A stretch of DNA of 58,275 nucleotides from an uncultured archaeon (GCA_964373695.1 CAYJVT010000004.1:1-58275), one strand, 5' to 3'. Positions 8,537-43,004 are shown, counted from the stretch's first letter. Translations and numbers: made by a program. Notes: generated from the sequence alone by a model not told the origin.

Positions 8537-11500
8537 ATGCGAAATATCGCAGTACTATTATCTATCCTGTTAATATTCTTTGCGTCCTCAATAACCTTTG
8601 CAGGTTATCAGGTCTACTCGGACGCCACGGTCGTGGCGGGCCAGCCGTTTTACGTGCGCGGCAATGTAAGCGGCACCAACCAGTACAATGTCAGCGTCAA
8701 CATAACAGGGAACAACGCAAACAATTCGTTTTCCGCAGGTGGCGGCTATTTCGAGGTTAATATTTCAGCCCCAGTGGTTGTCGGCGAATACAACGTCACC
8801 GTCCTGACAGGCAACGACACGTCCAACAACAAGACGATAAGGATATACGTCACGAACATCTCGTCTAATTTCTCCGCCATAACATTCACCAGAAACAAGC
8901 CGCCATTCTCGGCGGGATTGTCCTTCACGATAAACGTGACGATGAAGAACACCACAGGCAGCTTCCTGCACAACTACACTCCGCGGATGGAAATTTATTC
9001 TGCAAACGGCGTCAGGCAGACTTCATGGACGATAGCCAACATGTCAAACACCACAGACCACCGCGGCTGGGTCGAATACAACATAACCATACCTTCCGCA
9101 GTGGACGGCGATTTCGTAATCTCGGCCGACAAGGGCAACCTGCTGTCCTTCATAATCATAAAATCCAACTACGTGATGTCCGCAAGCGCCCAAACAAGCT
9201 CCAATGAGACGAAATTCGATTTCACACCGTCAAGCTCGTTCAACATAGTCGCAAAGATGAGGGACACGAGCGGCAACGCGATAGGGAACGCAATAAACAC
9301 CACGGCAAAAGTCATAAAACCTGACGGCACAGTCGAAACTGTGACGCTCGCAAATGACACTTCCCTTTTCGGCCAGTACAAAGGCAGCTACACTCTTGGA
9401 AGCACGACAGGGCAGTATACCATAAAGGCTTCTGGAATCATCGGAACAACGACAGTGGAGTCTTCCACTACCGTGAATGTGCAGCAGATAAAGGCAATAT
9501 TTGACACGCAGAAGGAATTTTTCAGGGAATGGGGTGATTCGTCGGCTTTCGTTCCTGGAGGCACAGTCGGGCTCATAGTCCTGGCGACAAACCTCAGCGA
9601 TTCGTCAATATTCGCGGGATCGACAAGGGCGTCGCCTTCCGGAGGAACTGTCAACTGCACCAGGCTGGGCGACACGCTGCAGGTATCTTACCTGAACGGC
9701 ACCAACTATGTCATAAGCGGCACCATCACCAATGATTCCTCAGGCACTTATTTTGGCCAGAGCGTATGCAGGGTACAGTTCGCAGGTCCTACGGAGACCG
9801 GCAATTATAAAATAACGGCAAACGCTTCGGTCGGCACAGGCAGCCCGTCGGCGATCGCCACAGGGTACTTTGCTGTCCAGAGGTTTGTGCTGAAGCCCAC
9901 GGCAGTGTCCTCGCTCGGCGGCTCATTCGACTTCATGACCATGCTGCATCCCGGCGAGAACGCCACTTTTGACATCGGCGCTTACGACCTTGCAAACAAC
10001 AGTGAAGTGGCGGGCCTCAACATAACAAACATCACTGTCACGAAGATAATACCTCTCGAGTTCAACGCAGGCGCAAACGACATACTGTCTGGCAGCGCCC
10101 AGCGTTCCGATGTATTCAATTTGACTAATATTACTGCAGGCTCGAACCTCAAGAACCCTGCGGTAACGGTCGGCCTGCCGGTCAACAAGACCGGGCCTTA
10201 CCTGATTGAGATGCAGGCGGTAATAGACACCGCTGAAGGGGACCAGATTATCACCGGAAGAGGATTCTACATATCCAAGTACATCATGGGCTTCCTTTCA
10301 TCCTCCGGCAGGACTGATGCCGCGTTCGGCGGGCCGTCCGGAGGCTTCGGCGGATTCTCTTCATGCAGCGAAGGCACAGAGAAATTCTCCGGCAACGTGA
10401 GGGAGTTGAAAACCAATAGCGCGCCCAAGGATCCGGTTTCATTCAACAACATACTCCAGGCAAGGGAGGAATTATCAGGAAGAGACATCTCGTCGTGCCT
10501 GACCATGTCGACAAATTCCTCCGACAGCAGCGGACAGGTGACAGTTCCTGTAACGTTCAACAGGACAAAGGCCGGCTGCACAAGCCTCTCTGGATTCCAT
10601 TTCATGCTCATCAACGTGACCTACAAGGGAAGGGAGGACCAGATACCTGCAGGCTTCATGTGCAGGCAGTTCCAGTTCTTCCCGCAGGGCAAGGATTCGA
10701 ACAATGCCTCCGTATGGAGGGTTGATTCCAAAGGCTCGGTCAACTTCACTTTGGACAACACGAATCCGGTGAGAAGGCTGAATGACAGCGGCACCATGCA
10801 GAATGGAACAGTCACCATTATCCGCGCCTTCAACTTCAATCCTGGCATCGGGATGCAAGTTCTCACTCTGAACAGCAGTGCCAACCTGACGAGAAATCTG
10901 TCAAATAGTGTCTTCAGCCTTGTCGTGACGCCAAGCACGTTCTCGCGCGCAACATACCCGAACGGCTTCATATCTATAACCTGGAAATTCACGCCTAACG
11001 GGAGCGAGAGCACCGGCAGCGATACGACTGAGACGGGCTTCCAGGTATCCGCATTTGATGCATACGTCGTGAACACGGAAAGGCCGACAACAGGAGGCGC
11101 CTGTGGCGCTGGCGTCACGTGCATGACAAACGGCAGTGCCGGAGGCTTCGGCGGCTTCGGCTCCACGTTCAGTGCCGGAGAAGACATAATTATATGGCTC
11201 CGTGCCTCGACAAACGTCAGCAAGACGAACAACACCAACGGCGGCACGAACCTCACGGGAGGAACCCTTGTGGGCGTGCAGAGCACCAGCGGCTTCACTG
11301 CAAAGGTGGGGCTTCCTTGGGAAGGCAAGCTCAAGCCTGTCACCATAAACAACGCATCGCTCGTCACGGATGACTGGAACGGCTCTTATGACAATCAATA
11401 CCCAAGATGGGGCGCAGAGCTGTGGAGGCTCAATGTCACCATACCAACGACACTCAAGAAAGGCTTCCAGGCGCTCCAGATAGAGGTCAACAGCTCCGCA

Positions 11501-13438
11501 AACGGCAATTCAAGCGAGAAGGTGACGACAGACGTATGGTTCAGCATCGTCAAGTACAGCGTTGTCATCGGGCAGGAGGAAGGCATGCTGTTCGAGAGCC
11601 ACTTCAAGAGATGGGGTAATTATTCCACTGGCATATCAGGTACGGGAGGAAGCACAATACCAGGTGAACCCATTGACAACACAACAATATTCAACGCAGG
11701 CTGGAATCTCACTTACATAAACACCACCTACAATCTTAGGTCCAAGTCAGATGCGGTATGCTTCAGGAATGAGCTCAATGTGACGAGATGGTCGCAGAGT
11801 TCCGCAGAAATATCATACAACAGGAGCCTTGGCATGAGAATACTGATACTGGATAACGGCACTGCAGGCGTCTACGACACCGTAATTATCAATGCAACCT
11901 ATCCGGGTGTGGATAACAACCGTACATATGTAAATAACATTACTATCCTGAGAACGGACGGGCTCAGGAATATTACAGGCAGCAATGGCGTCACATACAA
12001 CGTAAGCAGAAACATTACGTCAGACCTTTACCTGTGGCAGATACTTGACTGCAGCTACGTGAAATGGGTGAATGGTTCATACGTTCCGACCAACGTCGGC
12101 TCATGGGCAGGGCAATACCAGAAAGGCGTGAATTTCACCCTGCCTTACATAATCAAGAGGAGCAGTTCGGCCGGGCCTGCAATTTCCGGCGCGACTGTCA
12201 GCGTCAATGCGGTCATAAGGCAGAATGATGCTTCCAGTACAGGCGGCGCTTCAACAGGAGGATACGGCTTCTCGAAGAAACTTGTAGCACCTGAATACCA
12301 GTCAGATATGGCTGTTACAGGCTCCGGCGGTCTGGCATTCGTGCCTGTGAACATCTCAGGCTCAACAGGCAGCTTCATGATATTCTGGAGAGTGAATGAG
12401 ACAAACGGTCAGGAGGACATAGCATCGTTCCAGAGCGAGGGATTCGGCGGCTATGGTGGTGGTGGAGGAGGAGGCGACATAGGCACGCAAGTCCAGATAA
12501 GAGCATTCGACACGTATGCCAGCAGACTTCCAAGAGTCAATTCCAGCCATGCGGCAATCCCGATAAAGCTTAGGAACCTGACAGCGCCTTTGGACGCTGC
12601 CTTATCTATATATGGGATAACTGCTGGCGGCGCAGGCGACAGCGTATACAACGTTACATGGAACGAGGGATTAGGCGGCCAGCTCACGGAGAACAGCGCC
12701 CTAGACAACTTCACGATACTGTTCAACTTTTCGCTTGCTCAGTACGGCCAGAATGCCACGATAATGGGCAAGAACACCGCCAACCTGGCAGGCGCGTCTG
12801 TCGACACGTCGACATTCACATATACGATAGACGGCAAATCACTTTCGGTGGGCGCTGTCCGCAACACGGATGGGCAGAACCTGACAATAGCATTTTACGA
12901 GGACTCCAGCAGCCAAGTATATTACCCGATAATAAACCTGACGCAGAACATTTCAGTGAGGGTGTGCGCCCAGACTTATACGAAGCCGTCGAAGCCCATA
13001 CTGAATGCCAACGTATACATTTATGCGGAATCATGGGGCACTTCAGGATTCAGCATGACGCCAACCACAACCCCGATGCAATGGCACGACCCGATAAACA
13101 ACACACCTTACCTGTTCGGCCCGATATCAGGCATTTCAATGCCTGTAGCGAATGCCACTGTAGGGCCGAAGGGATGCGTGGCTATCAACGTAAGGAACCC
13201 ACTGAACTGGACATCATACACTTCATACAGCATCAAGGCCAAGGTAAAGCGAACAAGCGCGGCTGACAATGAAACCGATGTTGAGGATACGTATGTTGAT
13301 TACGTATGGAGGTCGCCGCAGTGCTCCAATGGCATTGATGACGACGGAGACGGCAACAGGGATTACCTCAGCTGGGGCGGAGGCGTGTCGGCTGATACCC
13401 AGTGCAGCAGCTATTCGGACGATGACGAAGCTGCATAA
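8537..13438 (+). CDS. giant secreted, heavily N-glycosylation-sequon-rich surface protein 1 (no membrane anchor)
   Basis: The ORF is open from 8279, but the ATG at 8537 gives the signal peptide MRNIAVLLSILLIFFASSITFAG. I counted 16 N-x-S/T sequons in the first ~165 mature residues. There are four Gly/Phe-rich loops. The C-terminus is QCSNGIDDDGDGNRDY...CSSYSDDDEAA, with no TM segment. Confidence 0.85.
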   Translation: MRNIAVLLSILLIFFASSITFAGYQVYSDATVVAGQPFYVRGNVSGTNQYNVSVNITGNNANNSFSAGGGYFEVNISAPVVVGEYNVTVLTGNDTSNNKTIRIYVTNISSNFSAITFTRNKPPFSAGLSFTINVTMKNTTGSFLHNYTPRMEIYSANGVRQTSWTIANMSNTTDHRGWVEYNITIPSAVDGDFVISADKGNLLSFIIIKSNYVMSASAQTSSNETKFDFTPSSSFNIVAKMRDTSGNAIGNAINTTAKVIKPDGTVETVTLANDTSLFGQYKGSYTLGSTTGQYTIKASGIIGTTTVESSTTVNVQQIKAIFDTQKEFFREWGDSSAFVPGGTVGLIVLATNLSDSSIFAGSTRASPSGGTVNCTRLGDTLQVSYLNGTNYVISGTITNDSSGTYFGQSVCRVQFAGPTETGNYKITANASVGTGSPSAIATGYFAVQRFVLKPTAVSSLGGSFDFMTMLHPGENATFDIGAYDLANNSEVAGLNITNITVTKIIPLEFNAGANDILSGSAQRSDVFNLTNITAGSNLKNPAVTVGLPVNKTGPYLIEMQAVIDTAEGDQIITGRGFYISKYIMGFLSSSGRTDAAFGGPSGGFGGFSSCSEGTEKFSGNVRELKTNSAPKDPVSFNNILQAREELSGRDISSCLTMSTNSSDSSGQVTVPVTFNRTKAGCTSLSGFHFMLINVTYKGREDQIPAGFMCRQFQFFPQGKDSNNASVWRVDSKGSVNFTLDNTNPVRRLNDSGTMQNGTVTIIRAFNFNPGIGMQVLTLNSSANLTRNLSNSVFSLVVTPSTFSRATYPNGFISITWKFTPNGSESTGSDTTETGFQVSAFDAYVVNTERPTTGGACGAGVTCMTNGSAGGFGGFGSTFSAGEDIIIWLRASTNVSKTNNTNGGTNLTGGTLVGVQSTSGFTAKVGLPWEGKLKPVTINNASLVTDDWNGSYDNQYPRWGAELWRLNVTIPTTLKKGFQALQIEVNSSANGNSSEKVTTDVWFSIVKYSVVIGQEEGMLFESHFKRWGNYSTGISGTGGSTIPGEPIDNTTIFNAGWNLTYINTTYNLRSKSDAVCFRNELNVTRWSQSSAEISYNRSLGMRILILDNGTAGVYDTVIINATYPGVDNNRTYVNNITILRTDGLRNITGSNGVTYNVSRNITSDLYLWQILDCSYVKWVNGSYVPTNVGSWAGQYQKGVNFTLPYIIKRSSSAGPAISGATVSVNAVIRQNDASSTGGASTGGYGFSKKLVAPEYQSDMAVTGSGGLAFVPVNISGSTGSFMIFWRVNETNGQEDIASFQSEGFGGYGGGGGGGDIGTQVQIRAFDTYASRLPRVNSSHAAIPIKLRNLTAPLDAALSIYGITAGGAGDSVYNVTWNEGLGGQLTENSALDNFTILFNFSLAQYGQNATIMGKNTANLAGASVDTSTFTYTIDGKSLSVGAVRNTDGQNLTIAFYEDSSSQVYYPIINLTQNISVRVCAQTYTKPSKPILNANVYIYAESWGTSGFSMTPTTTPMQWHDPINNTPYLFGPISGISMPVANATVGPKGCVAINVRNPLNWTSYTSYSIKAKVKRTSAADNETDVEDTYVDYVWRSPQCSNGIDDDGDGNRDYLSWGGGVSADTQCSSYSDDDEAA

Positions 13439-13471
13439 AGCGCTTGCGGCGGAAACTGAAATAAAAGATAA

Positions 13472-15025
13472 ATGAACAAGGAAACGGAGAAGAACAGAAT
13501 GAACAAAAACATAATCTTAATGGCACTGGCAGTTGTTTTGCTGTCGTCAATAAGCATGGCGCAGAGCAATTCGGTGTCAAGCGTAACCACCACAAGTTCT
13601 GCCGTATCGGCAACCACCGGAACGAATGTCGTCATAACGGCAACTGCTACGGCGTCAGGCGGCGACGTGTCAAACACGCAGCTCCAGCTCATAAAAGTGA
13701 GCGGCAACGGCTCCGGAAGCTGCACCGGAAGCAGTGATTTCTCCGTTTCAGATCCAGGCTCTCCCTATACCTACACAACAACGGTAAGCACGAGCGGCAC
13801 CACGAAAAGCTTCACATTTACCGTGGGCAACTGCGGCACTTACACTTATCATGTGACGGCGACTTGGTCAGGAGGCTCCAAATCATCCTCCGATGCGACA
13901 ATAGAGTTCATAAACCCAACCTCAATGACTGTTACTGCAACACCAACGACAAGACAGGTCAATTTGTCCCAGACATTCTCGGCCAGCATGGATATCCAGA
14001 ATTCACAGGACAGCGATGTCACCACGTCTTACACCCTGAACCTTCCTACAGAAATAACAAGAAGCTCCGGAGATGATGCCAGCAGCACATCGTTCACTAT
14101 CACTGCAGGCACCACGCAGACGCTTACCTGGACGCTCCAACACAGCACATGCTTCACAGGCGACAAAAGCGTGACACTTGACCTTGGCAGCCAGACAAGC
14201 GCCGCAACCTTGACTGTGACGGGCAATTCATCATGCGCTACAACAAGTAGCACCTCTTCGTCATCAAGCAGTTCAGGCGGCGGAGGCGGAAGCTCTACAA
14301 GCTCTCAGGTGAAGGCAATAGTTGCCAAGCAGGCGGCTCCGAACACGATAAAGGCGACGTTTTCGGCAATAGCGAAGGACAAGGAAGCAGTCGTTGAGGT
14401 TCCAAGTGATGTCGATACAGGGCTGACAAAAATACTTTTCACGGCAGCGAAGGCGCTTACAAGCGCCCAGATAACAGTCGCGAAGCTTGATTCCGCGCCG
14501 GCATCAATAAGTGCTCCCGTGTCTGCGGAGCCGGCGGTGAAAGTCTACAAATACATAGAAATATCCCATAACATCGCCGAGCCTGAAATAGCGACAGCAA
14601 CCATACAGTTCGACATTGACAAGTCATGGCTTGATGCCAATAATATTGATCCAGCGAAGGTCGTGCTTAACAGGTACAGCTCCGACAAATGGGCGAAGCT
14701 GATAACGAGCAAGACGGCAGAAACATCGGACAAGGTATCATACAGCGCCGCGACGCCCGGCTTCTCGGTGTTCGCTATAAGCGGCGAGGTGAAGACTGAG
14801 GCTGTCCCTGAATCCGCTGCTGTTCCAGGTGCCGGTGCTGGAGAAGAAGCGGGCCAGGAGGAAAGCGCCGCAGGAACAGCGCCTCCTTCGGGCCAAGTTG
14901 ACAGCGGCGTGCTCACAGGCGTTGCAGCAGTGCTTGTCGCAATAATAGTGATAGTATTCGTCTTCATGAAAAAAGCCCATAAGCCGCAGTCAAGAGGATA
15001 CTCTTACGGTTTAAGAAAGAAATAA
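13472..15025 (+). CDS. type-I membrane protein with PGF-pre-PGF-like domain (anchor paralog 1)
   Basis: - Signal peptide.
- Two Cys-pair Ig/CARDB-like regions.
- Ser/Gly linker.
- KVYKYIEISHNI...FDIDKSWLDANNIDPAKVVLNRYSSDKWAKL...ATPGFSVFAISG, the PGF-pre-PGF pattern.
- Acidic linker, TM helix and basic tail.
The start could instead be 13499. Confidence 0.8.
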   Translation: MNKETEKNRMNKNIILMALAVVLLSSISMAQSNSVSSVTTTSSAVSATTGTNVVITATATASGGDVSNTQLQLIKVSGNGSGSCTGSSDFSVSDPGSPYTYTTTVSTSGTTKSFTFTVGNCGTYTYHVTATWSGGSKSSSDATIEFINPTSMTVTATPTTRQVNLSQTFSASMDIQNSQDSDVTTSYTLNLPTEITRSSGDDASSTSFTITAGTTQTLTWTLQHSTCFTGDKSVTLDLGSQTSAATLTVTGNSSCATTSSTSSSSSSSGGGGGSSTSSQVKAIVAKQAAPNTIKATFSAIAKDKEAVVEVPSDVDTGLTKILFTAAKALTSAQITVAKLDSAPASISAPVSAEPAVKVYKYIEISHNIAEPEIATATIQFDIDKSWLDANNIDPAKVVLNRYSSDKWAKLITSKTAETSDKVSYSAATPGFSVFAISGEVKTEAVPESAAVPGAGAGEEAGQEESAAGTAPPSGQVDSGVLTGVAAVLVAIIVIVFVFMKKAHKPQSRGYSYGLRKK

Positions 15026-15078
15026 GTTAGTGTATTATGATATAAAAAGCTTTCTGCTATCCTCTAAAAGGTGTGAAT

Positions 15079-15318
15079 ATGGAGAATGAAATACAGCTCA
15101 TAAAGAACTTTGAAATGGACAGTATGTGGTTGAAGACTCATATAGATTCCATACGAAGCAAATTTAAGAACTCGTTTGTGGCAGTAAAAGACAAGAAAGT
15201 AATACTTTCAGGCAAAGATTTAGACGCATTAATAGAAGAACTCAAAAAAAATGGAGTAGAGACGGATTCTGTAGTTATTGAGTATGTACCAGAGAAAGAT
15301 ATACGAATAATTTACTAA
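15079..15318 (+). CDS. small DUF5678-like protein (partner of retropepsin-like protease)
   Basis: The 79-aa ORF ...KFKNSFVAVKDKKVILSGKDLDALIEELKKNG... resembles small archaeal proteins usually found next to retropepsin-like proteases. The context is AT-rich. Confidence 0.5.
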   Translation: MENEIQLIKNFEMDSMWLKTHIDSIRSKFKNSFVAVKDKKVILSGKDLDALIEELKKNGVETDSVVIEYVPEKDIRIIY

Positions 15319-15377
15319 AATTATATGTAAGATTTATCAAATCAATTTTATACATGCTTAAATAGTAGTTACAATGA

Positions 15378-15845
15378 ATGCTCTTTATGAAAGTCCCGTT
15401 GAAGTGGGTAAAGGATGGCATATACTTACATGCCAGAATTATGGCAACTCATGTTACAGGACAGCTTAGATTTCTCATTGATACTGGAAGTGAAGTAAGT
15501 TTTGTAGGAGGAATAGACGCCAGAAGACTTGGAATAAAATTAAATAAGACTTCTAATCCAGAAGATTGTGTTTATTTGGGAAGAACACGATTTAGACTTA
15601 TTGATATGAGAAATGTAAGACTATCTTTTATTGGAGAAGAAAATGGTCAGGAAAAGATAAAGGCTATCAACGTTCCAGAACTAAAGGTAACACCAGATGT
15701 TCTTCAGGATAAGGGAATAAAAGATTCTCCAAATATACTAGGTTTAGATTTTCTTGTATTAAACAAACTCAGAATAGTTGTTGATGGTTCTAATAATACG
15801 GCTTGGTTTGAAACACCTCTATTTAGTAAAACCCCTGAAAGATGA
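15378..15845 (+). CDS. retropepsin-like (clan AA) aspartic protease
   Basis: LRFLIDTGSEVSFV contains the D-T-G-S catalytic motif in a protein of about 150 aa. ILGLDFL lies near the C-terminus, as in the retropepsin fold. Confidence 0.65.
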   Translation: MLFMKVPLKWVKDGIYLHARIMATHVTGQLRFLIDTGSEVSFVGGIDARRLGIKLNKTSNPEDCVYLGRTRFRLIDMRNVRLSFIGEENGQEKIKAINVPELKVTPDVLQDKGIKDSPNILGLDFLVLNKLRIVVDGSNNTAWFETPLFSKTPER

Positions 15846-16041
15846 CTAGATGAATTATTTCATATTTTTCTCTAAATATTTATAGTATTTTCAAGAAATC
15901 TAAAACCTAACGCATATAAAAAACATATATATACTGTCCCGACCCATAGTCCTTCTATTGGGTGGTCAGATGTCAAAGAGAAAATGGATAAAAATAAGGA
16001 TGGGCTAGAAAGGCCGGATATTTTTATTCTCCCATTATATG

Positions 16042-16081
16042 CAGAGAGTATGACTAAAAGTCATGATATTCATACTCTCTG
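16042..16081. other. perfect 12-bp inverted repeat with 16-nt loop upstream of cysS
   Basis: cagagagtatga(16042-16053) and tcatactctctg(16070-16081). It lies 66 nt upstream of the cysS ATG. Confidence 0.6.
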
Positions 16082-16146: not shown

Positions 16147-17523
16147 ATGAGACTTTTCAACACCCTCACAAGACAGAAGGACGAGCTTGCGCCGCATGGC
16201 GACGTGAGAATGTATTTCTGCGGCCCCACGGTATACGATTTTGCCCACATAGGAAATTTCAGGTCCTATCTGGTTGCGGAGCTCACAAGGCGGTATCTTG
16301 AATACAAGGGATACGGCGTCAGGCTTGTCATGAACATAACCGATGTTGACGACAAGACGATAAAAGGTTCAAGGAAGGAAGGAATGCCCCTGAAGGAATT
16401 CACGAAAAAGTACGAGGACTATTTCTTTGAGGACCTCGACTCGCTCCGCATAAAGCTCGCATCAGCCTATCCAAGGGCGACGGAGCATATAGACGACATG
16501 GTCGGCCTGATAAGGAATCTCCTGGGGAAGGGAATCGCGTACAGAGGGGAGGACGGCTCCATATATTTTGACATAACGAAGTTCAAGGATTACGGGAATC
16601 TCTCCAGAGTCGACCTGTCGGGCCTGAAGGCCGGCGCCCGTGTCAACCAGGACAATTACGAAAAGGACGACGCGAAGGATTTCGCGCTGTGGAAGGCGTG
16701 GAGCGAGGAAGACGGCGACGTCTACTGGGACACCGAATTGGGCAGAGGAAGGCCTGGCTGGCACATAGAGTGCAGCGCCATGTCCATGAAGCACCTTGAC
16801 GGCATAGACATCCACGGAGGCGGCATAGACCTCATGTTTCCCCACCATGAGAACGAGATAGCGCAAAGCGAGGCTTCCACAGGCAAGAAATTCGCCGACA
16901 TATGGCTCCACTGCGAGCACCTGCTTGTCGACGGAAGGAAGATGTCGAAGAGCCTCGGGAACTTCTACACCATCAGAGATGTCGCGGAGAAAGGATTCAA
17001 TCCGCTGGCATTCCGATACCTTTGCATGTCGACCAACTACAGAAGCCAAATCAATTTTACATTCCAGTCGCTTGAGGACGCGTGGAACACCGTCCAGAGC
17101 ATAAACAACTTCATCTTCCGCCTTAGGAGCGAGAACGACGACAAGGAGAACATGACGATAATGGATGCCGTGGAGAAGGCCAGAAATGGGTTCGAGGCTC
17201 ATATGGATGACGACCTTGACGTCCAGCACGCCCTGGCAGATGTTTTCGAGCTCATGCGCATCGTCAACAAGGAGATAGACGAGGGCAGAGCAGGCTCGCT
17301 TGAAGAAGCTCTTGAGTTCATCCTCTCGGTAAACGACATATTCGACATCCTGACGGAAACGGAAACAAATCTCACCGAAGAGGAGAAAACGATGATAGAG
17401 GAACGCGAGAAGGCGCGAAAGCAGAAGGATTTCAGGAAGGCCGACAAGATAAGGAAAGAACTTGCCGAGAAAGGAATTAGCATAGAGGACTCGCCTCACG
17501 GCCCGAGGTGGAAGAGGATTTAA
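16147..17523 (+). CDS. cysS: cysteinyl-tRNA synthetase
   Basis: Class-I motifs HIGN (FAHIGNFRSY) and KMSKS, and CGPTVYD at the N-terminus. Confidence 0.95.
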   Translation: MRLFNTLTRQKDELAPHGDVRMYFCGPTVYDFAHIGNFRSYLVAELTRRYLEYKGYGVRLVMNITDVDDKTIKGSRKEGMPLKEFTKKYEDYFFEDLDSLRIKLASAYPRATEHIDDMVGLIRNLLGKGIAYRGEDGSIYFDITKFKDYGNLSRVDLSGLKAGARVNQDNYEKDDAKDFALWKAWSEEDGDVYWDTELGRGRPGWHIECSAMSMKHLDGIDIHGGGIDLMFPHHENEIAQSEASTGKKFADIWLHCEHLLVDGRKMSKSLGNFYTIRDVAEKGFNPLAFRYLCMSTNYRSQINFTFQSLEDAWNTVQSINNFIFRLRSENDDKENMTIMDAVEKARNGFEAHMDDDLDVQHALADVFELMRIVNKEIDEGRAGSLEEALEFILSVNDIFDILTETETNLTEEEKTMIEEREKARKQKDFRKADKIRKELAEKGISIEDSPHGPRWKRI

Positions 17524-17708
17524 TTCAATTCTCTTAAGGGCAAAATATAATTAAACCCATCTTTATCTTTTTCAACGACACATTTAACAGAGCAGAACTC
17601 AATATTCTGCCATAAATCATTATTCACTCCCCCCGAATAACAAAAAAATACCAGAATAATATTTATATACTTCCCCACAAAATTATAGTCATTGTTGCAT
17701 GGCGCCTG

Positions 17709-17918
17709 ATGAAGAGGCGCCAGCCTTCAGGCCTTAAACTAGCAGGCGACTCGCAGCTGACGATGCCAAAGCCGCCTACACCGCAGCAACAGGCAAAAGC
17801 AATATCCCCTCCTGTCCAGACGCAAAAGCTCAAAGTAACGTCTGTCAGCAGCGTTCCGAGAACGCAGTCCCTGGAAACGAAAGCAAAATACGAGTACAAG
17901 GGCAAGAAGAAGAAATAA
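17709..17918 (+). CDS. small basic hypothetical protein
   Basis: 69-aa ORF ending KAKYEYKGKKKK, with TTTATATA (17663-17670) about 40 nt upstream. No family recognised, and it competes with an antisense ORF. Confidence 0.3.
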   Translation: MKRRQPSGLKLAGDSQLTMPKPPTPQQQAKAISPPVQTQKLKVTSVSSVPRTQSLETKAKYEYKGKKKK

Positions 17919-17962
17919 TCCGGGCAGGATTTCTTTTTAGTTTCATCAGCAAATTATAACAT

Positions 17963-20826: not shown

Positions 20827-20850
20827 AGTTTCATTTTTTTTCTAAAAGGA

Positions 20851-20861
20851 AATCTTATATA
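20851..20861 (+). promoter_or_regulatory. candidate BRE/TATA of giant gene 2 (AATCTTATATA)
   Basis: Lies 36 nt upstream of the ATG at 20897. The same motif occurs at 34630-34640, and with one extra T at 8483-8494. Confidence 0.4.
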
Positions 20862-34629: not shown

Positions 34630-34640
34630 AATCTTATATA
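34630..34640 (+). promoter_or_regulatory. candidate BRE/TATA of giant gene 3 (AATCTTATATA)
   Basis: Identical 11-mer to 20851-20861. It lies 28 nt upstream of the GTG at 34668 and 97 nt upstream of the ATG at 34737. Confidence 0.4.
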
Positions 34641-34736
34641 GATTGGAATTTTCATTATTGAAGAGGGGTGTCAGACATCTTTGGGATTTTTTCGTGCGCA
34701 TTGTCGGCCGCGGGCAACGACATAAGATACAACGGG

Positions 34737-37700
34737 ATGAAGGGACTGAAGAGCGTAGGCATCTTCCTTGTCGTGGCGTCGTCCATAATTGCATTCTCGC
34801 TGTCAGTCCTGGCCTCGACATCGTCAAATTTCACGAAAGGCGACATACCGGCGTCGTATTTCGGCGCGTCGCAGCACAATCTCGTGTTCAATGTCACGCT
34901 TCCCGACGGCACCAACGGCGCCGCAGAGGACACGCTTCTCAGGGACGGCTCAGCAGAGACGTGGTCCGGATATGCACTGAATTCTTTCAACTCAACGACG
35001 AAATTCGCAGGCGGCTCCTACACAGGCTCTGAAGCGATAGTAGTTGACTTCAATGACAATGGATTTTTCAACGCGTCCGAAGGCGATTATGCCGTGGTGA
35101 GTTCTGCGCCAGCCGATGGCACAGCAGTGAGCAACGCGTGGGGGAACATAAAATTCTCCGGCACCGCCTTGTTTGACGCGACATCCGACGTATACGACGA
35201 CACCGCCAACGCGGGGATTGTCGACAAGAGAGTGGACCGCGTCTCAAGCATATTGTTCTCCAACAGCGGCACGGCGACAGACATCGATATAAAACTGCGT
35301 GTGTGGAACGACACCGACAGCAACGGGATATTCGACAGGTTCATAGACAAGGAGATAGGCCCGTCATCCGGCATAACAGCCGTAAGCTCCAGCCAGTGGA
35401 ATCTTAGCAACGGGTTTGAGATACCTTTGGGCGGCCAGAGGATATTCGTGACGGTGGATACGTCGACTCCAACAAGCGGCAGGACAATTCGGATAGGAAT
35501 CCCGCAAAACGGCGTCTACGTCGCCTCGAACAACGACGGACCCACGGATGCCGCAGTGACGAACGCTTTCACGCAGACTATAGACATAATAACGCCTTCA
35601 CTTACGGCAGTCTCGATAACGCCTCCTTCACCTGTCAGGACCAACACACTACTGAACGCGACGTGCACTGACGCTTCCGCCCTTACAGTAACCTATAACA
35701 TTGATTCAGCCGCCAACCTGAGCCTTTCGCAGACCGGAGGCTCGTTCACGGCCACTGTTGACATCTCCTCCATTCAGGACGGAGCGCATACCATAAACGT
35801 GTTCTGCTCCGACCCTGCGAACAACACGGCAACCAGCGGCCTCTCGTTTACAGTCGACAAGACCCAGCCGGCTGTATCCATAACCCCTCTTTTCTCCACG
35901 GCAATAAACAACACAGCCATGACGGACAACCTCAGCTTCAGCGGCTCGTTCTCCGACAGCACGACCAGCATACAGTCCGGCGACTACTCGCTCGACGGCG
36001 GCGCCCCGGTCTCGCTGCCGGCGCTCAACGGGAGCTACGGGAACGACATGAACCTGAACTATTCATTCACGCTTTCATCGGTTGCTGACGGGCTGCACAC
36101 CGTATCCGTCAGGACGTTTGACGCTCCAGGCAACCTAGGAAATGCATCTTACGGATTCTTCGTGGACACCGAAGTGCCTGTTTCCTCTGTGAACCCGGCA
36201 TCGGCCTACAAGACATCAAGGGTTTTCCAGCTGCCCTATTCGTCTAACGATTCCGTTCAAACGTCAGGAATACAGAACGTGACTTTATATTATAGGATAA
36301 ACCAGTCCAATCCTTACATTGCATACGCAAACACGACAAACGGCACTTTCATCTTTGACGCCACGGCCCTAGGCGACGGCTTCTATGAATTCTATACATT
36401 GGCAAGGGACAATGCCGGGAACGTCGAAGCGGTGCCGGCAGCTCCAGATGCGAACACAACAATAGACACTGTAATGCCGATTATAGCAAACCTTGCATTT
36501 GTCGAGACGCCCGAATATACGAACGGCACCCAGGCATGGTTCAGGCAGGCATCCCACGCCGCGCTTTCGTTCGTTTCAGCCGTTTCAGACATGACTTCCG
36601 GCCTGCAGCAGTGCAATGCCACATGGGACTCGAGTTCAGACGCGGATGACAAACTCCTGGTGACGAACCTCACAGGAAATGCAACTTTTGTAGGCGTGAA
36701 CGACGATGCAGATGCAACTGTTAACGTAACAGTATCGTGCACCGACAAAGCCGGGCTTGATAACAGGTCTTCAGTGATAATAATGCTTGACGGCACGGCG
36801 CCGTCGATATCAGGGCTCCAGTGGAACGAAACCTCCAGCTACGCTCACGTGAATTTCACTGGCGGGCTTGTGTACAGCTCTGCAATGCCGGCGCCGATAA
36901 CCGTTTCAGCCAGAGGCTCCTCAAGTGACGCAGGCTCCGGCTTCAGAAACGCCAATTTCTCAGCGGTGTTTGGAGACGGCCCTGACAACAGCACCTCGTC
37001 ATCGTGGGAGGCCAATTATACCATAAATCCGTCAGACAGCGGCAACGGCACGATGAACGTCACGGTGTTCGACAATGTCGGCAACCCGCTATCGCAGCTG
37101 CTTAACTTCGCCGAGGACAATGCACCGCCATTGATAACTCTGAGCTCGCCCAACGGCGGCGAACTCCTGAGAGGAGGCTCCGTCTTCACCATAACATGGA
37201 CTCCCGCATCCGACGAGAACGGAATCGCTACGAACAATATCACGATAGAGTACTCCACAGGCTCCTCGTGGACGCTTGTTGCATCCGAACTGCCCAATTC
37301 CGGTTCATACTTATGGGCTATTCCGTCGATAGATTCGTCTTCGGTGACGATAAGGATAAACGCCTCCGACGCTGTCCAGAACGTTGGAAGCGATTCCAGC
37401 AACTCCGTCTTTGCCATAGACTCGGCAGCGCCTTCGATACTTCTGGCGTTCACCAACGACACCGACTCTGACGGTAAGATAGACCGGATAGAGCTCAACT
37501 TCAGCGAGTCCGTCAATGTTCCTTCGCTGTCAGGAGTGAGCATAGCAGGCTACAGCACTGAAGGGACGTACTCCCTTACCAACATAAGGGATCTTTCGAT
37601 ATACCTGCAGGAAGCCTCCGTTGACACCAATGCGACACCGCAGATAACGTTCCTCTCCTCGCTTATAGCCGACCTGTCCGGCAATCTCATACAAAACCAG

Positions 37701-40700
37701 AGCATAACGCCGCAGGACAAGGCAAGGCCCATCCTGCTCGCGGCAAGGACGAACGACACAAACCTCAACGGAAAGATAGACGTTCTCATGCTGAACTTCA
37801 GCGAGCCTGTGAACAACATTGTCGCGAACCTCATCTCAGCGGCGGACGGGTTTTCCATAAGCGGCTACTCAAACCCGTCATTCATATCACCCTCAAAGGT
37901 TCTGGCGAACAATACCGGCGTGCTTAACGTGACGTCCACTAGCACCCTGATGCTGCAGCTAGGGTTCACGGAAGGCTCTTCATACGACACCGGCGCGACG
38001 GCAACGATGAATGCCCTGGCGGGCTATCTTGCGGACGCGGCAGGAAACCCCCTGGTAGCGGCTTCGAGCCTTGCAGTTTTGGACGGCGCGCCGCCTTTCA
38101 TGGCAAACGCCGCGACATCCGACGCGAACGGCAACGGCAAGATAGACAACATAACAATCACGTTCACAGAAGGGTTGCAATTCGATACCATAAACTCTGG
38201 CGGCGGCGACTTTTCGTTACTGCCTTCTTACACCATTCTAGATGTAAATAAAACCGGCTTCGCCGTAGGCAAGCTCGTATTAAGCTTATCAGAACAGACG
38301 TACTTTGACGGCAACGAAACCCCTATAGTCTCGTTTGTGCCGGGCCAGACTCTGAAGGACAGCAACGGAAACAACATGACTTCGGGCTCGGTGACGCCTG
38401 CTGACGGGATAAGGCCTGTCGTCACAACGACTTCAGGCATCGGCATGCTGCTCGGGCCGGGCGATCACAGCTTCAACGCAACGTTCAGCGAGAATGTTTC
38501 TGGTCAGTCCATATATTTCGGGTTACCCAGCGTGTTTTCATTGATATCCGGCACGTTCAACTCATCTTTCTGGAACGGCACGATAAGGCTGAATTCGTCT
38601 GTCCCTGACGGAACTTATACGATAAACATCACAGGAGCTTCAGACACTTCGGGCAACAGGATGCTTGACAACACATCTTTCTCCTTCACATCCGACCAGA
38701 CTCCCCCTGCTATAACATTCCTCAGCCAGACGCCGCAGAACAATGACGTCAGGTTTGAAAACAACACACTGATCAACGCAACGATAACAGACGCAAGCCA
38801 GATAAGCAGCGTAACGGTTCTATGGAACAGCGTCCTCTACAACCTCAGCAACTCATCGGGCAATTATTACGCCAATATCACCAGCCAGCCCGACGGCGCA
38901 TACAGCTTTAACATAACCGCAAATGACACGCTGGGCAACTCGAGGACAACGGAAACGAGGAATATAACGATATTCGCGTCCTATCCCAGAGTAACACTGA
39001 TAATTCCCACTCCTGCCAACGGCACGTATGCAAACTCACCTGTCTTCATTGTAAACGCAACTGCAATAGGCGCTGGTGTAGCTGCGGCTTACATCAATAT
39101 TTCCGGCTCTTCATTCTGGATGACGAACACCACGGCCGGCGTATTCAATGCAACAGTCAGCCTTCCTGACGGAACTTACATGTACAACGTGACTTCGCTC
39201 AATGCGAGCGGCGGGATAATCAACGTATCAGAAACCCGCTTCATAACAATAGACACCATAATTCCTGTGATAAACAGCGTTTCCGTGTCTTCTGACAGGG
39301 CGGGTTATTTCAACCAGACTGGCCTGAACTCATACACAGTGAACAACCTTCTTGGACAGGGCGGCGGGCAAAACCTGACGTTCACAGTTAATGCCACGGA
39401 TTCATCGCCTTTGAACGTTTCCCTGACAAGCGGGCCGCAGGTAATCCCGTCAACAGGATTTCCTTATATCATGACGCTCCAGATAACCCCGTTCTATGCA
39501 GGCGTCATAAACGTGAGCATAAACGTTACGGATGCCGCCGGGAACCTTAACACGACAAACATCACAATAGGCATAGACAACGGGCCGCCGCAGATCAATA
39601 GGATAACAATCGATAACACGCCTCCCGGAATAACGTCGTTCGCCGGCAACACGCTTTTCTTCGGGAACATAACGTCGGCCCAGTTCAACATATCCGGGAA
39701 CGCGTCCGATGCCAACGGCCTCGGCTCGCTCTTCTCGAATTCGCCTTACCCTAACCAGACGTCATTCAACTCGGCAACCGGCAACTGGAGCATCCTCCTG
39801 TCCCTCAATGAAAATTCCACCAGCGGAATCGTGGCGATTACAGTGACCGACATAGTCGGCAACAGCGCAAACCTGTCGCTGACAGTGACAAAGGACAGCA
39901 ACAGCCCGACTGCGCCTGTCCTTTCATCCCTGCCGCAGTTCGTATCATCCTATCCTGCACTCTCATGGGCGAGCTCAACTGACACGGAATCCGGAACAAG
40001 AGGCTACATAGTCATGAGGTCGGCGGACAATGCGACTTTCATTAACGCGTCTAGCGTCCTCTCCAACTCCACGACAAATTTCACTGACACGTCGTCGCCC
40101 GAAGGCCTATTGTTCTACATGATAAAGGCAATCGACAACGTGAACAACACCAGAAGCTCAAACACCGTCAGCACGACTGTAGACTTCTCGGCGCCTGCAA
40201 TAACGTCGGTGAATGCCACAAAGGTCAACGACATCGGCACCGTCGTGAACATCACTGCAAACATAACCGATACGATAGGAGTGAATGAAGTAATCATCAA
40301 TGCAACGGTCAGAAACCAGACTAATATAATATTTACAACCTACATGACGAAAGTGCTTGGTACTTACAATATCACGTGGAACACGACAAACCTTACAGAA
40401 GGATTCTATTACATAGGGATAAACGCCACCGATCTGTTCAACCGGACAACAAGCGTGGACAAGGTTCTTGTCATACTGCTGAGAGCGCCTTCAACAACGC
40501 TTGCCACGCCGCAGTCAATATTCACCAATTCGTCCGTTACGACAGTGGCCAACACCACAAGCAGCGTGAACACCGACGTCGGCCTGGCGCTTGACTTAAT
40601 AACAAATTCATCATCGGCGGGAAGCATCAATGTCCTGTCATACAATACGAATCCGGCGGGAAGCACCTCAGGCGTCACGTCGCTGCTTGCCCTCAGCAAA

Positions 40701-41522
40701 TACTTCGACATAATCCTGAGCGACAGCCTCAATTCCACGCTGTCGAACGCGACCATAAGGATAAGCTACACCGATGCGGAACTGGCGGCAGCCGGGATAG
40801 ACGAGTTAAGCCTCAAAATATACTTGTGGACAGGCTCAACATGGCAAGCCCAGACAAGCACAGTCGACGCCGCCGGCAACACAGTCTCGGCAACAGTCCC
40901 GCATTTCAGCATTTATTCGACATTCGGCTCGGCACCTCCCGCAACGCCTGCGGCTCCTTCCGTTTCCGGAGGAGGGGGCGGTGGAGGCGGAGGCGGCTTC
41001 GCAGCATGCCTGGAGAACTGGGTGTGCACCGACTATTTGGCATGCTCAGTATACGGAACGCAAAAAAGAACATGCGTTGACAAGAACAGATGCGGCACCA
41101 TAAGAGGCAAGCCAGCAGAGAGCCGGTCATGCACATTCACTGAGACGCCAGTTTGCGGCAACGGCATAGTTGAAACCGGCGAGCAATGCGATACCATCGA
41201 CCAGGCGTGCACGAGCGCCGAAGGCTATGTAGGAAAGAAGGCGTGCTCAACCACGTGCAACCTTGGCATATGCATCCCACTTGAGAATTGCGGCGACGGC
41301 ATCTGCAACGGCCCTGAAACATCCCTGACTTGCTCGTCGGACTGCAGGCCCGGACAGACAGGCGCAGGCATACCAGTGACAGGGCAAGCGATATCGGTCG
41401 TGGCCGACCCGCTGCTTTCCACCGTCATCATCGCAGGTATTGCAGCCATTCTTTTCACCGCATGGAACATAAGAAACAGGAGAAAATCCGCGGCCGACAA
41501 GGAAAACAAGAAAAAAAGATAG
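34737..41522 (+). CDS. giant sequon-rich surface protein 3 with Cys-rich stalk and C-terminal TM anchor
   Basis: - The ATG at 34737 gives the signal peptide MKGLKSVGIFLVVASSIIAFSLSVLAS. The ORF is open from the GTG at 34668.
- Many Ig/FN3-like segments.
- PGF-pre-PGF-like segment (SLKIYLWTGSTWQAQ...VPHFSIYSTFG).
- Gly10 linker.
- Cys-rich repeats (CGNGIVETGEQCD, CGDGICNGPETSLTCSSDC).
- TM helix and basic tail. Confidence 0.85.
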   Translation: MKGLKSVGIFLVVASSIIAFSLSVLASTSSNFTKGDIPASYFGASQHNLVFNVTLPDGTNGAAEDTLLRDGSAETWSGYALNSFNSTTKFAGGSYTGSEAIVVDFNDNGFFNASEGDYAVVSSAPADGTAVSNAWGNIKFSGTALFDATSDVYDDTANAGIVDKRVDRVSSILFSNSGTATDIDIKLRVWNDTDSNGIFDRFIDKEIGPSSGITAVSSSQWNLSNGFEIPLGGQRIFVTVDTSTPTSGRTIRIGIPQNGVYVASNNDGPTDAAVTNAFTQTIDIITPSLTAVSITPPSPVRTNTLLNATCTDASALTVTYNIDSAANLSLSQTGGSFTATVDISSIQDGAHTINVFCSDPANNTATSGLSFTVDKTQPAVSITPLFSTAINNTAMTDNLSFSGSFSDSTTSIQSGDYSLDGGAPVSLPALNGSYGNDMNLNYSFTLSSVADGLHTVSVRTFDAPGNLGNASYGFFVDTEVPVSSVNPASAYKTSRVFQLPYSSNDSVQTSGIQNVTLYYRINQSNPYIAYANTTNGTFIFDATALGDGFYEFYTLARDNAGNVEAVPAAPDANTTIDTVMPIIANLAFVETPEYTNGTQAWFRQASHAALSFVSAVSDMTSGLQQCNATWDSSSDADDKLLVTNLTGNATFVGVNDDADATVNVTVSCTDKAGLDNRSSVIIMLDGTAPSISGLQWNETSSYAHVNFTGGLVYSSAMPAPITVSARGSSSDAGSGFRNANFSAVFGDGPDNSTSSSWEANYTINPSDSGNGTMNVTVFDNVGNPLSQLLNFAEDNAPPLITLSSPNGGELLRGGSVFTITWTPASDENGIATNNITIEYSTGSSWTLVASELPNSGSYLWAIPSIDSSSVTIRINASDAVQNVGSDSSNSVFAIDSAAPSILLAFTNDTDSDGKIDRIELNFSESVNVPSLSGVSIAGYSTEGTYSLTNIRDLSIYLQEASVDTNATPQITFLSSLIADLSGNLIQNQSITPQDKARPILLAARTNDTNLNGKIDVLMLNFSEPVNNIVANLISAADGFSISGYSNPSFISPSKVLANNTGVLNVTSTSTLMLQLGFTEGSSYDTGATATMNALAGYLADAAGNPLVAASSLAVLDGAPPFMANAATSDANGNGKIDNITITFTEGLQFDTINSGGGDFSLLPSYTILDVNKTGFAVGKLVLSLSEQTYFDGNETPIVSFVPGQTLKDSNGNNMTSGSVTPADGIRPVVTTTSGIGMLLGPGDHSFNATFSENVSGQSIYFGLPSVFSLISGTFNSSFWNGTIRLNSSVPDGTYTINITGASDTSGNRMLDNTSFSFTSDQTPPAITFLSQTPQNNDVRFENNTLINATITDASQISSVTVLWNSVLYNLSNSSGNYYANITSQPDGAYSFNITANDTLGNSRTTETRNITIFASYPRVTLIIPTPANGTYANSPVFIVNATAIGAGVAAAYINISGSSFWMTNTTAGVFNATVSLPDGTYMYNVTSLNASGGIINVSETRFITIDTIIPVINSVSVSSDRAGYFNQTGLNSYTVNNLLGQGGGQNLTFTVNATDSSPLNVSLTSGPQVIPSTGFPYIMTLQITPFYAGVINVSINVTDAAGNLNTTNITIGIDNGPPQINRITIDNTPPGITSFAGNTLFFGNITSAQFNISGNASDANGLGSLFSNSPYPNQTSFNSATGNWSILLSLNENSTSGIVAITVTDIVGNSANLSLTVTKDSNSPTAPVLSSLPQFVSSYPALSWASSTDTESGTRGYIVMRSADNATFINASSVLSNSTTNFTDTSSPEGLLFYMIKAIDNVNNTRSSNTVSTTVDFSAPAITSVNATKVNDIGTVVNITANITDTIGVNEVIINATVRNQTNIIFTTYMTKVLGTYNITWNTTNLTEGFYYIGINATDLFNRTTSVDKVLVILLRAPSTTLATPQSIFTNSSVTTVANTTSSVNTDVGLALDLITNSSSAGSINVLSYNTNPAGSTSGVTSLLALSKYFDIILSDSLNSTLSNATIRISYTDAELAAAGIDELSLKIYLWTGSTWQAQTSTVDAAGNTVSATVPHFSIYSTFGSAPPATPAAPSVSGGGGGGGGGGFAACLENWVCTDYLACSVYGTQKRTCVDKNRCGTIRGKPAESRSCTFTETPVCGNGIVETGEQCDTIDQACTSAEGYVGKKACSTTCNLGICIPLENCGDGICNGPETSLTCSSDCRPGQTGAGIPVTGQAISVVADPLLSTVIIAGIAAILFTAWNIRNRRKSAADKENKKKR
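37446..38178 (+). repeat. three tandem ~100-120-aa domain repeats inside giant gene 3
   Basis: Each repeat opens with TNDTDSDGKIDRIELNFSESVN (about 37446), TNDTNLNGKIDVLMLNFSEPVN (about 37743) or TSDANGNGKIDNITITFTEGL (about 38108). These are D/N-x-D/N-G-K-I-D calcium-loop-like motifs. Confidence 0.7.
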
Positions 41523-41544
41523 TTTCAAGAATTTCCGAGGAAAT

Positions 41545-42465: not shown

Positions 42466-43004
42466 AAAAGACTATAATCATGGCAATTCTGCTGATGGCG
42501 GCATATTCCAACGCAGCATTCATCATACAGGACGGCAGCGCCTATAAGATATTGAACGAGATAACTTCCAGCCACGTATCCAGAGGAACCTTGCTCTTCG
42601 TAAATTACATAATATTCGAGAACCAGACGATGATAGACGAGCTTGAAGCCGAGGAGAGGGAAATGAATTTCAGCGTTTCCAGGGCAAATTTCGAAAGCGT
42701 CAGGCTTGAGGCCGAAAACAACAGGACTTCCGACATCATAGAAAAGAAATCGTCCGCCCTCCTGATAGCTGAATCCGAGAGGAACAGCACGAGGAATATA
42801 TTAAGCTCTATCGAGGCGAAAAAATCCAGGCTGGAAGGGGTGATAAACTCATCCGTCCTCCTGTCAGGCGGCACCTACAACATAAGCGCCGCCATCTTCA
42901 TCATACTGATCATTCTCACGATAACCATGAAGTCGAGAAGCATGATGCTGAAATACGGCATAAACCTGAAGAAAAACGTGGCTGAAAAGGAAAGAAAGAG
43001 CTAG
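42462..43004 (+). CDS. secreted/membrane-anchored coiled-coil protein
   Basis: ATGA overlap with the previous gene. Same layout: signal peptide, coiled coil, C-terminal TM (AAIFIILIILTITM). Confidence 0.6.
   Translation: MKKTIIMAILLMAAYSNAAFIIQDGSAYKILNEITSSHVSRGTLLFVNYIIFENQTMIDELEAEEREMNFSVSRANFESVRLEAENNRTSDIIEKKSSALLIAESERNSTRNILSSIEAKKSRLEGVINSSVLLSGGTYNISAAIFIILIILTITMKSRSMMLKYGINLKKNVAEKERKS

Follow-up and report, generated by a model that had tools for sequence, protein, structure and literature searches.

Paired genes for giant sequon-rich proteins and putative membrane anchors in an uncultured DPANN archaeon

In the surface layer (S-layer) of Sulfolobales, a canopy of SlaA stands on stalks of SlaB, and the two proteins are encoded by adjacent co-oriented genes, the large subunit first and the small one second (PMC10903991). 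Anchoring by a co-expressed accessory protein has also been named as one mode of archaeal S-layers (10.1101/2024.05.28.596244). Here we describe genes in the same order in a 58,275-nt stretch of DNA from an uncultured archaeon (GCA_964373695.1, CAYJVT010000004.1:1-58275; the whole stretch is called the window below). In this window, two genes for giant proteins crowded with N-x-S/T sequons, G1 and G2, are each followed by a gene for a putative membrane anchor, A1 and A2, and a third giant gene, G3, is followed by the genes of two smaller membrane proteins, C1 and C2. The closest homologs of A1, G1 and G3 were all found in metagenome-assembled genomes (MAGs) named Candidatus Aenigmarchaeota or Aenigmatarchaeota, which agrees with the DPANN origin assumed in a first-pass annotation made from the sequence alone. 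DPANN archaea depend on their surfaces for living, and to our knowledge envelope proteins are experimentally known in few cultivated DPANN lineages and in none of the Aenigmatarchaeota.

The likeness to SlaA/SlaB extends from gene order to the proteins. In both cases the large subunit (~1400-1600 aa) is Sec-exported, β-rich and heavily N-glycosylated, which is read here from the sequons, and has no transmembrane (TM) segment, and the small subunit (~450-500 aa) has N-terminal immunoglobulin (Ig)-like sandwiches toward the canopy and a C-terminal TM segment (PMC10903991). However, no sequence or fold match between the two systems was detected. A1 and A2 use disordered linkers and a PGF-pre-PGF sandwich and, as judged from the A1 model, have no coiled-coil stalk. 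Furthermore, the sequon density of G1 and G2 is more than twice that of SlaA, which has 31 sequons in 1424 aa (PMC10903991), and there are two or three paralogous cassettes per genome here. SlaA/SlaB appears to be the closest functional analogue of the cassettes; homology is unsupported.

The S-layer protein predicted in the same phylum would occupy the same cellular compartment as G1 and G2, but it has 745-794 aa and an MSTP-like β-sandwich (A0A842Q7F5 type), whereas G1 and G2 have 1600-1900 aa. Proteins of the G1/G2 type are absent from the protein table of the preprint that described it (10.1101/2024.05.28.596244), and none of the seven proteins of the window had a Pfam or NCBIfam match to the S-layer/DUF1608 duplication domain. 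Existing annotation of the cassettes consists of 'hypothetical protein' and 'PGF-pre-PGF domain-containing protein' only. Our literature searches returned no description of such giant-anchor cassettes, and in full-text literature PGF-pre-PGF appeared in just two papers, both on unrelated subjects. The canopy-and-stalk design is already known; what is new here is the invariant pairing, the giant-specific heads of the anchors, the dispensable PGF-pre-PGF domain and the contrast in conservation between G1/G2 and G3.

Co-occurrence of giants and anchors in relatives

All seven genes, with the domains and promoter-like elements described below, lie on the plus strand. G1 (8537-13438) was read as an open reading frame (ORF) of 1633 aa; the frame is open upstream to 8279, and a signal-like segment begins at 8537. 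It is followed after 33 nt by A1 (13472-15025, 517 aa). G2 (20897-26509, 1870 aa) is followed after only 4 nt by A2 (26514-28004, 496 aa). The coordinates of all seven genes in the first-pass annotation were correct, and its spacings of 34 and 5 nt become 33 and 4 nt.

Co-occurrence of giant and anchor genes in relatives had been set beforehand as a test of the pairing. G1 homologs were sought by scanning species-representative genomes, with three look-ups in addition, and G2 homologs by a metagenome scan. A locus was testable if it held a giant homolog with readable downstream DNA; counts are non-redundant and include the window. We found an A1-type anchor directly downstream of the G1 homolog, on the same strand, in 15/15 testable loci (the window, L001, L002, L005, L011, L012, L013, L018, L019, L020, L022, L023, L024, L037 and L038). 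These downstream proteins carry a signal peptide, the A1-type head (A1N) and a TM segment. Two of the 15 loci are in Micrarchaeota-labelled MAGs, and the genomic neighbourhoods vary among the loci. Similarly, an anchor with the A2-type head (A2N) lay downstream of the G2 homolog in 9/9 testable loci (the window, L008, L009, L028, L031, L032, L033, L034 and L035), the most divergent one, that of L034, being recognised by eye. Identities were 28-71% for G1 orthologs and, for those of G2, 84% (L008), 46% (L009) and 34-48% (L027-L036).

The reverse search gave the same picture. When anchors were used as the starting point (P0005, P0007, P0011, P0023 and P0031 of the A1 type; P0034 and P0047 of the A2 type), the matching giant was directly upstream in 7/7. 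The A1N and A2N heads each occur only with their own giant family, and neither fusion to an anchor nor a TM segment was seen in any of the 17 G1-family proteins.

Some loci contained further arrangements. In L038 (GCA_964570195.1), positions 2376-15434 hold three tandem cassettes, of which the first is a G1-like giant with an A1-type anchor, the second a distant G2-like giant with a PGF-pre-PGF anchor, and the third the start of a giant (1606 aa). In L012 (1-5892) and L024 (576-1493), a minimal protein of 305-306 aa, composed of a signal peptide, a short N-terminal region, PGF-pre-PGF and a TM segment, is encoded just upstream of the G1 homolog. The L012 copy is itself preceded by another giant without a TM segment (at least 1654 aa, 111 sequons), and the order of these two genes suggests a third kind of giant-anchor pair.

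Architecture of the anchors and the giants

The anchors were then resolved into domains. From its N-terminus, A1 consists of a signal peptide, a head, a disordered Ser/Gly linker, a PGF-pre-PGF domain, a second disordered linker, a TM segment and a basic tail. In the AlphaFold2 model (predicted local distance difference test, pLDDT, 82), which comprises three sandwiches and the TM segment, the G1-specific head is a double β-sandwich (aa 34-252, nt 13571-14227, with sandwiches at aa 34-147 and 153-252). The PGF-pre-PGF sandwich follows at aa 279-440 (nt 14306-14791) and the TM segment at aa 478-502 (nt 14903-14977). The helices of the model are the signal peptide, the TM segment and one 6-residue helix within PGF-pre-PGF. 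Foldseek of this model against the PDB returned only generic tandem sandwiches of the Ig or macroglobulin (MG) kind, with template-modelling scores (TM-scores) of at most 0.25. A2 has the same order of parts, with a G2-specific head (aa ~20-250, nt 26571-27263) unrelated to that of A1, a Ser/Gly linker, PGF-pre-PGF (aa 262-421, nt 27297-27776), another linker, and a TM segment placed by hydropathy scan at aa ~455-477 with a basic tail after it.

The first-pass annotation had proposed a PGF-pre-PGF-like domain in both anchors, and the TIGR04213 model recognised it well above its cutoff of 28 bits, in A1 with 100.3 bits (E 1e-28, aa 315-438) and in A2 with 91.7 bits (E 4.5e-26, aa 281-417). It had also called the anchors paralogs. 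That is so for their C-terminal halves, since the BLASTP similarity of A1 and A2 is confined to the PGF-pre-PGF half (59% over 164 aa), but not for the N-terminal ectodomains, as A1N and A2N showed no detectable relationship (hhalign probability 0.6%).

Besides passing the PGF-pre-PGF model, A1 and A2 resemble the TIGR04213/PGF-CTERM archaeosortase A system of Euryarchaeota in the place of the domain, which has the same membrane-proximal position in methanogen relatives (for example P0048). Archaeosortase A substrates are marked by a PGF directly in front of the C-terminal TM helix and basic tail. However, the PGF of A1 and A2 ends the domain ~50 residues N-terminal of the TM segment, and the PGF-CTERM models (TIGR04126) had no match in A1, A2 or G3 at E<=0.1. 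Archaeosortase models had no match among the scanned proteins of the 58-kb window. Because of the missing PGF-CTERM match and the distance of PGF from the membrane, A1 and A2 look like ordinary type-I membrane proteins, with no sign of archaeosortase processing.

Comparison of the anchors among loci indicated which parts are constant. Several anchors lack PGF-pre-PGF, namely those of L011 and L013 (G1 type) and those of L033/L036, L034 and L035 (G2 type); these anchors keep the head and the TM segment, and the giant persists too. The giant-specific head and the TM segment do not vary in this way and were present throughout. Where PGF-pre-PGF is present, its copies group by genome, whatever the anchor type: identity within a genome is 61% for A1 and A2 of the window and 66% for the L038 pair (7001-8434 and 13188-14642), compared with 33-45% to orthologous anchors of other lineages. 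Such likeness within genomes suggests concerted evolution or a repeated swapping of modules. The A1 and A2 DNA of the window is only ~70% identical, so the likeness is not due to a recent event, and we rejected a recent gene-conversion tract between the two genes. Since heads and TM segments are invariant while PGF-pre-PGF is dispensable and genome-clustered, the anchor seems to be modular, with a specific adaptor head on a lineage-common stalk.

Next, we analysed the giants. G1, G2 and G3 contain 81, 110 and 105 N-x-S/T sequons, respectively, against 29, 47 and 48 expected from shuffling of their composition (z = 10.9, 11.2 and 9.9). The mirrored motif S/T-x-N occurs 38, 42 and 52 times, which is the chance level, indicating that the enrichment is directional and no by-product of an N/S/T-rich composition. 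Sequon density is 4.6-5.9 per 100 aa, and 51-57% of Asn residues lie inside sequons across the three giants. The densest 165-aa stretch of G1 has 16 sequons, in agreement with the earlier count for ~165 residues. The anchors are sequon-poor, with 3 in A1 and 2 in A2. In the G1 family, 12 or more of the 16 members share a sequon at each of 25 alignment columns. G1 and G2 are probably heavily N-glycosylated, given that about half of their Asn residues are in sequons.

Topology was assessed by hydropathy scan for signal-like segments, with cleavage sites judged by eye (small residues at -3/-1). The sole hydrophobic segment of G1 and of G2 is N-terminal and there is no TM segment, whereas A1, A2, G3, C1 and C2 have an N-terminal segment and a C-terminal TM segment with basic residues after it. 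The signal-like N-termini and extreme sequon density of all three giants, and the lack of a TM segment in G1 and G2, were thus described correctly in the first-pass annotation.

The fold of G1 was predicted from its C-terminal three quarters. The AlphaFold2 model of aa 440-1633 (1194 aa) is all-β (pLDDT 71; predicted TM-score, pTM, 0.60), and its best Foldseek matches were arrays of MG domains, namely complement C5 and C3 and α2-macroglobulins, including Salmonella and E. coli proteins. TM-scores were 0.15-0.19, which means that only the repeated sandwich unit matches. In line with this, a Pfam scan of G1 gave MG2 and MG4, both below threshold, and MG2 matched in 13 of 16 G1-family members. 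The model suggests that G1 is an array of MG/Ig-like sandwiches and not an α2-macroglobulin. Sequence searches of the PDB with G1, G2, G3 and C1 gave nothing usable.

By BLASTP, no similarity was found among G1, G2 and G3, and the C-terminal match of A1 and A2 was the only one among the seven proteins. Profile comparison was more sensitive: hhalign aligned the G2 family with the G1 family over 782 columns (98.1%, E 7.5e-14), and the N-terminal ~880 aa of the two families are collinear remote homologs. It follows that the G1-A1 and G2-A2 cassettes are old paralogs. The notion of three related giants was rejected, as only G1 and G2 are related, and by profile comparison alone. By eye, the C-terminus of G2 (aa ~1700-1870) resembles parallel β-helix repeats, and no β-helix model matched G2 in the Pfam scan.

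G1 ends in an acidic, Cys-flanked tail, QCSNGIDDDGDGNRDY...C..DDDEAA (aa 1595-1633, nt 13321-13435), with a weak match to an 'acidic double-disulfide repeat' model. The tail is present in many G1 orthologs and absent in L037 and L038. A dockerin-like role of this tail (QCSNGIDDDGDG..DY) was rejected as a general mechanism, because the tail-less G1 orthologs of L037 and L038 still have A1-type anchors.

The third giant and the case for tethering

G3 (34737-41522) has 2261 aa and Pfam matches to the Ig-like domains Big_13 and Big_3_3. Its C-terminal part consists of a PGF-pre-PGF-like domain (aa ~1950-2065, nt 40584-40931), a run of ten glycines (Gly10, aa 2078-2087), Cys-rich modules (aa 2091-2203, nt 41007-41345) and a TM segment found by hydropathy scan (aa ~2221-2243, nt 41397-41465) with a basic tail after it; the Gly10 run, the Cys-rich stretch and the TM segment had been recognised in the first pass. 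The further claim that G3 carries in cis a segment related to that of the anchors holds as remote homology. TIGR04213 itself did not recognise it, either in the full-length protein (none at E<=0.1) or in the C-terminal 362 aa (none at E<=0.01). Despite this, a family-specific hidden Markov model (HMM) matched the segment with E 3.7e-5 and 18.4 bits, 45 of the 150 best relatives of the C-terminal segment of G3 also matched this HMM, and hhalign aligned the segment with PGF-pre-PGF at 98.2% (E 5.5e-14). For these reasons we assign the segment, on profile evidence, to a sister family of PGF-pre-PGF and not to PGF-pre-PGF proper. G3 has PHF ~160 residues before the TM segment where A1 and A2 have PGF.

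The C-terminal module of G3 has 3486 relatives at E<=1e-3. Its Cys-rich units are of two types, C..W.C......CS..G.Q.R.C.D.N.CG and CGDG.C, which no family model matched, and many unrelated-looking proteins among these relatives have 4-11 copies of the first type.

C1 (41545-42465, 306 aa) begins 22 nt past G3 and is a type-I membrane protein with a signal peptide, a β-rich region, a helical region and a TM segment; it had no family or PDB match. The start of C2 (42462-43004), a type-I membrane protein of 180 aa, overlaps the C1 stop by 4 nt. We found one clear ortholog of G3, P0231. In L026 (520-8392), the loss of ~35 codons (G3 aa ~1804-1840) together with a frameshift breaks the G3 ortholog into ORFs of 2205 and 425 aa, the second of which lacks a signal peptide. 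For these reasons we rejected the broken ortholog as a natural split form of G3, and an assembly error or a pseudogene is the probable explanation. L026 keeps C1 (83% identity) and C2 (82%) in synteny behind the G3 ortholog.

The first-pass annotation had argued, in the manner of a Rosetta stone, that G3 is the fused form of the split giant-anchor systems and that G1 and G2 are therefore held by A1 and A2. This argument is weak. G3 shares neither the ectodomain of G1 or G2 nor the head of A1 or A2; what it does share is a distant PGF-pre-PGF-like module, which is dispensable in the split systems, and 0 of 17 G1 proteins are fused. PGF-pre-PGF proper is likewise found in cis in further sequon-rich proteins with Ig domains (P0044 and P0050), and such sequences show PGF-pre-PGF with a TM segment to be a general membrane-proximal stalk, which is no proof of G1-A1 binding. 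The case for tethering rests instead on the strict synteny and on the co-variation of head and giant family.

Levels of conservation separate the three giants further. Between the window and the L001 genome, G1 and A1 are 71% and 75% identical, as compared with 74% for CysRS and 82-84% for transporters, and between the window and the L008 genome, G2 is 84% and eIF6 86% identical. In L026, which belongs to the same MAG as L008, G3 is only 62% (N-terminal part) and 43% (middle) identical, whereas SRP54 and the proteasome α subunit are 92% and 94% identical. With conservation at the housekeeping level, G1 and G2 behave like structural components, and G3, with its fast divergence, resembles a variable adhesin. 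We see G3-C1-C2 as an element of another kind, with a lineage-restricted, fast-evolving, adhesin-like giant that has its own stalk.

Most likely, G1-A1 and G2-A2 are anciently duplicated bicistronic operons, each coding for a two-subunit cell-envelope complex. In such a complex, the large subunit would be exported by Sec, lose its signal peptide, become heavily N-glycosylated and fold into a compact all-β MG/Ig array with no membrane attachment of its own. The small subunit would be a type-I membrane protein whose double β-sandwich head is specific to one giant family and binds the giant non-covalently. A stalk made of the Ser/Gly linker, the optional PGF-pre-PGF spacer, the second disordered linker, the TM helix and a basic cytoplasmic tail would raise the head off the membrane. 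The outcome would be a glycan-shielded canopy on stalks, with an architecture parallel to that of SlaA/SlaB in Sulfolobales. G3, probably co-transcribed with C1 and C2, would stand on its own stalk of PGF-pre-PGF sister domain, Gly10, Cys-rich modules and TM segment. On the grounds of synteny and head specificity, we consider it plausible that the anchors tether G1 and G2, with a probability of about 0.55.

Several points weigh against such an envelope complex. The S-layer protein predicted for Aenigmatarchaeota is a different one, the MSTP-like protein of 745-794 aa (10.1101/2024.05.28.596244), and G1/G2 may consequently not be the primary lattice, which lowers the chance of this role. SlaA/SlaB was not recovered by PDB sequence searches with the giants or among the top 50 Foldseek matches of the A1 and G1 models, A1 being compared with SlaA/SlaB by fold only. 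The A1 model has no coiled coil for a SlaB-like trimerisation. There are two or three paralogous cassettes per genome (in the window and in L038), and the two-component S-layers known to us have a single pair. Strict synteny would also fit functional couplings of another sort, for example to an assembly factor or a co-receptor. A related possibility is that the giants are released, or attached elsewhere, to the MSTP-like S-layer or its glycans, with the downstream type-I proteins acting independently or as co-expressed helpers of export or assembly. The separate S-layer prediction for the phylum is in keeping with this, as are the PGF-pre-PGF domain of the anchors, which is variable and swaps by lineage, and the acidic Cys tail of G1, which is not universal and leaves no fixed docking motif evident. 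However, a pairing in 15/15 and 9/9 loci with giant-specific heads would hardly be expected if giant and anchor were not directly linked in function. Within the anchors it is the heads that are conserved, and their paucity of sequons, compared with the saturated giants, fits a buried or interface position. We therefore regard giants without a tether as improbable.

The role assigned to all three loci in the first-pass annotation was that of a host-contact apparatus, in which episymbiont adhesins, with G1 and G2 presented by their anchors, would recognise or hold a host. Surface structures have been widely proposed to mediate contact between DPANN archaea and their hosts (PMC8407114). The organism is a DPANN archaeon that devotes more than one third of the window to these genes, and G3, with its adhesin-type Big_13 and Big_3_3 domains, single ortholog and fast divergence, suits the proposal. 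G1 and G2 suit it less well: they have full-length, collinear orthologs throughout the phylum and in two Micrarchaeota-labelled MAGs, and are conserved like CysRS and eIF6 with many sequon positions kept, unlike partner-specific adhesins. Moreover, no host is known for the lineage, and the sequences give no indication of a ligand. As an account of all three loci, host contact seems to us unlikely; for G1 and G2 it is somewhat unlikely, and it is plausible mainly for G3. It is far less probable still that G1 and G2 are α2-macroglobulin or thioester protease traps of the YfhM kind serving surface defence, and we give that reading hardly any weight. It draws on the MG2 and MG4 matches, on the best structural matches (C5/C3 and the α2-macroglobulins of Salmonella and E. 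coli), on the repeated macroglobulin-like β-sandwich unit and on a similar overall size of ~1600 aa. However, the C-x-E-Q thioester motif is absent from G1, G2 and G3, Pfam gave no A2M, TED or receptor-domain match, the all-β model of G1 (aa 440-1633) has no helical thioester domain, and the global TM-scores are very low. Because of the missing motif and helical domain, identity with α2-macroglobulin was rejected.

A wider reading of the tethered complexes is that Aenigmatarchaeota and some Micrarchaeota-labelled genomes possess an undescribed two-component envelope layer independent of SlaA/SlaB, with a glycan-shielded MG canopy, an adaptor stalk for each giant family and a shared partner of PGF-pre-PGF. 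In this layer, the likeness of PGF-pre-PGF among the stalks of one genome would imply a common lateral or membrane partner. We put this forward tentatively and think it rather doubtful. In any case, the phylum's main exposed glycoprotein complex has a concrete candidate in a giant with its matching anchor, which may also be a second case, of independent origin, of the canopy-plus-stalk design of Sulfolobales. The contrast in one window between the conserved G1/G2 and the fast-evolving G3 can guide the study of envelope structure on the one hand and of host recognition on the other, and the likeness of stalk modules within genomes offers a lead on the evolution of modular envelopes.

Gene layout and neighbourhood

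Together, the seven genes make up 21,810 nt or 37.4% of the window, where the earlier estimate was ~36%. A promoter-like element was read from the sequence upstream of each giant. That of G1-A1 (8467..8494), ~45 nt 5' of the G1 ATG, is a T7 run followed by AAAAATCTTTATATA, which resembles a B recognition element (BRE) and TATA box, and those of G2-A2 (20834..20861) and G3-C1-C2 (34605..34640) are each a T8 run followed by AATCTTATATA. No T-run or TATA-like element was read in the G1-A1, G2-A2 or G3-C1 gaps or in the C1/C2 overlap. These boxes may act as the promoters of the giant operons. Because they lie 5' of the giants only and the gaps before the anchors, C1 and C2 are short, each giant is likely to be co-transcribed with its anchor, and G3 with C1 and C2. 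For G3, an alternative GTG start lies at 34668. Judged from the TATA-like box at 34630-34640, transcription would begin near 34665, which makes the start of G3 ambiguous between a leaderless GTG and the ATG with a 70-nt leader. The 23 codons from the GTG to the ATG (34668-34736) are conserved in L026.

The cassettes are flanked by archaeal housekeeping genes, including those for asparagine synthase, MgtE, CysRS, Rpr2, S19e, riboflavin kinase, eIF6 and prefoldin, as well as FtsY, SRP54, the proteasome α subunit, SBDS and exosome subunits. Two smaller genes stand close to the anchors. At 28025-28888, beginning 20 nt past A2, a polytopic membrane protein of 287 aa is encoded, and the gene is absent at the matching site of L008. 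This protein had no Pfam match and no NCBIfam match at E<=1, and it was rejected as an archaeosortase for want of a family match. After A1, an ORF of 155 aa (15378-15845) has a weak retropepsin-like signature (clan AA aspartic protease), below curated thresholds.

Groundwater samples yielded some of the relatives (for example GCA_016187365.1 and GCA_016180925.1). Among the relatives, L009 (GCA_016187335.1), a locus on an Aenigmarchaeota-labelled contig of 918 kb, has genes for a sigma-54 activator, a GerE-type protein and a response regulator near its G2/A2 homologs (16507-18347). This gene content looks bacterial, and the labelling or assembly may be questionable. Inteins were seen in two genes near giants. 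The FtsY gene of the window (31286-34174, 962 aa) is split by an intein with a LAGLIDADG homing-endonuclease domain at aa ~253-782, and FtsY at the equivalent position of L008 has 297 aa and no intein domain. The second intein (Intein_splicing and LAGLIDADG_3) is in L011 (631-5760), from a Micrarchaeota-labelled MAG, within the SMC gene that immediately precedes the G1 homolog.

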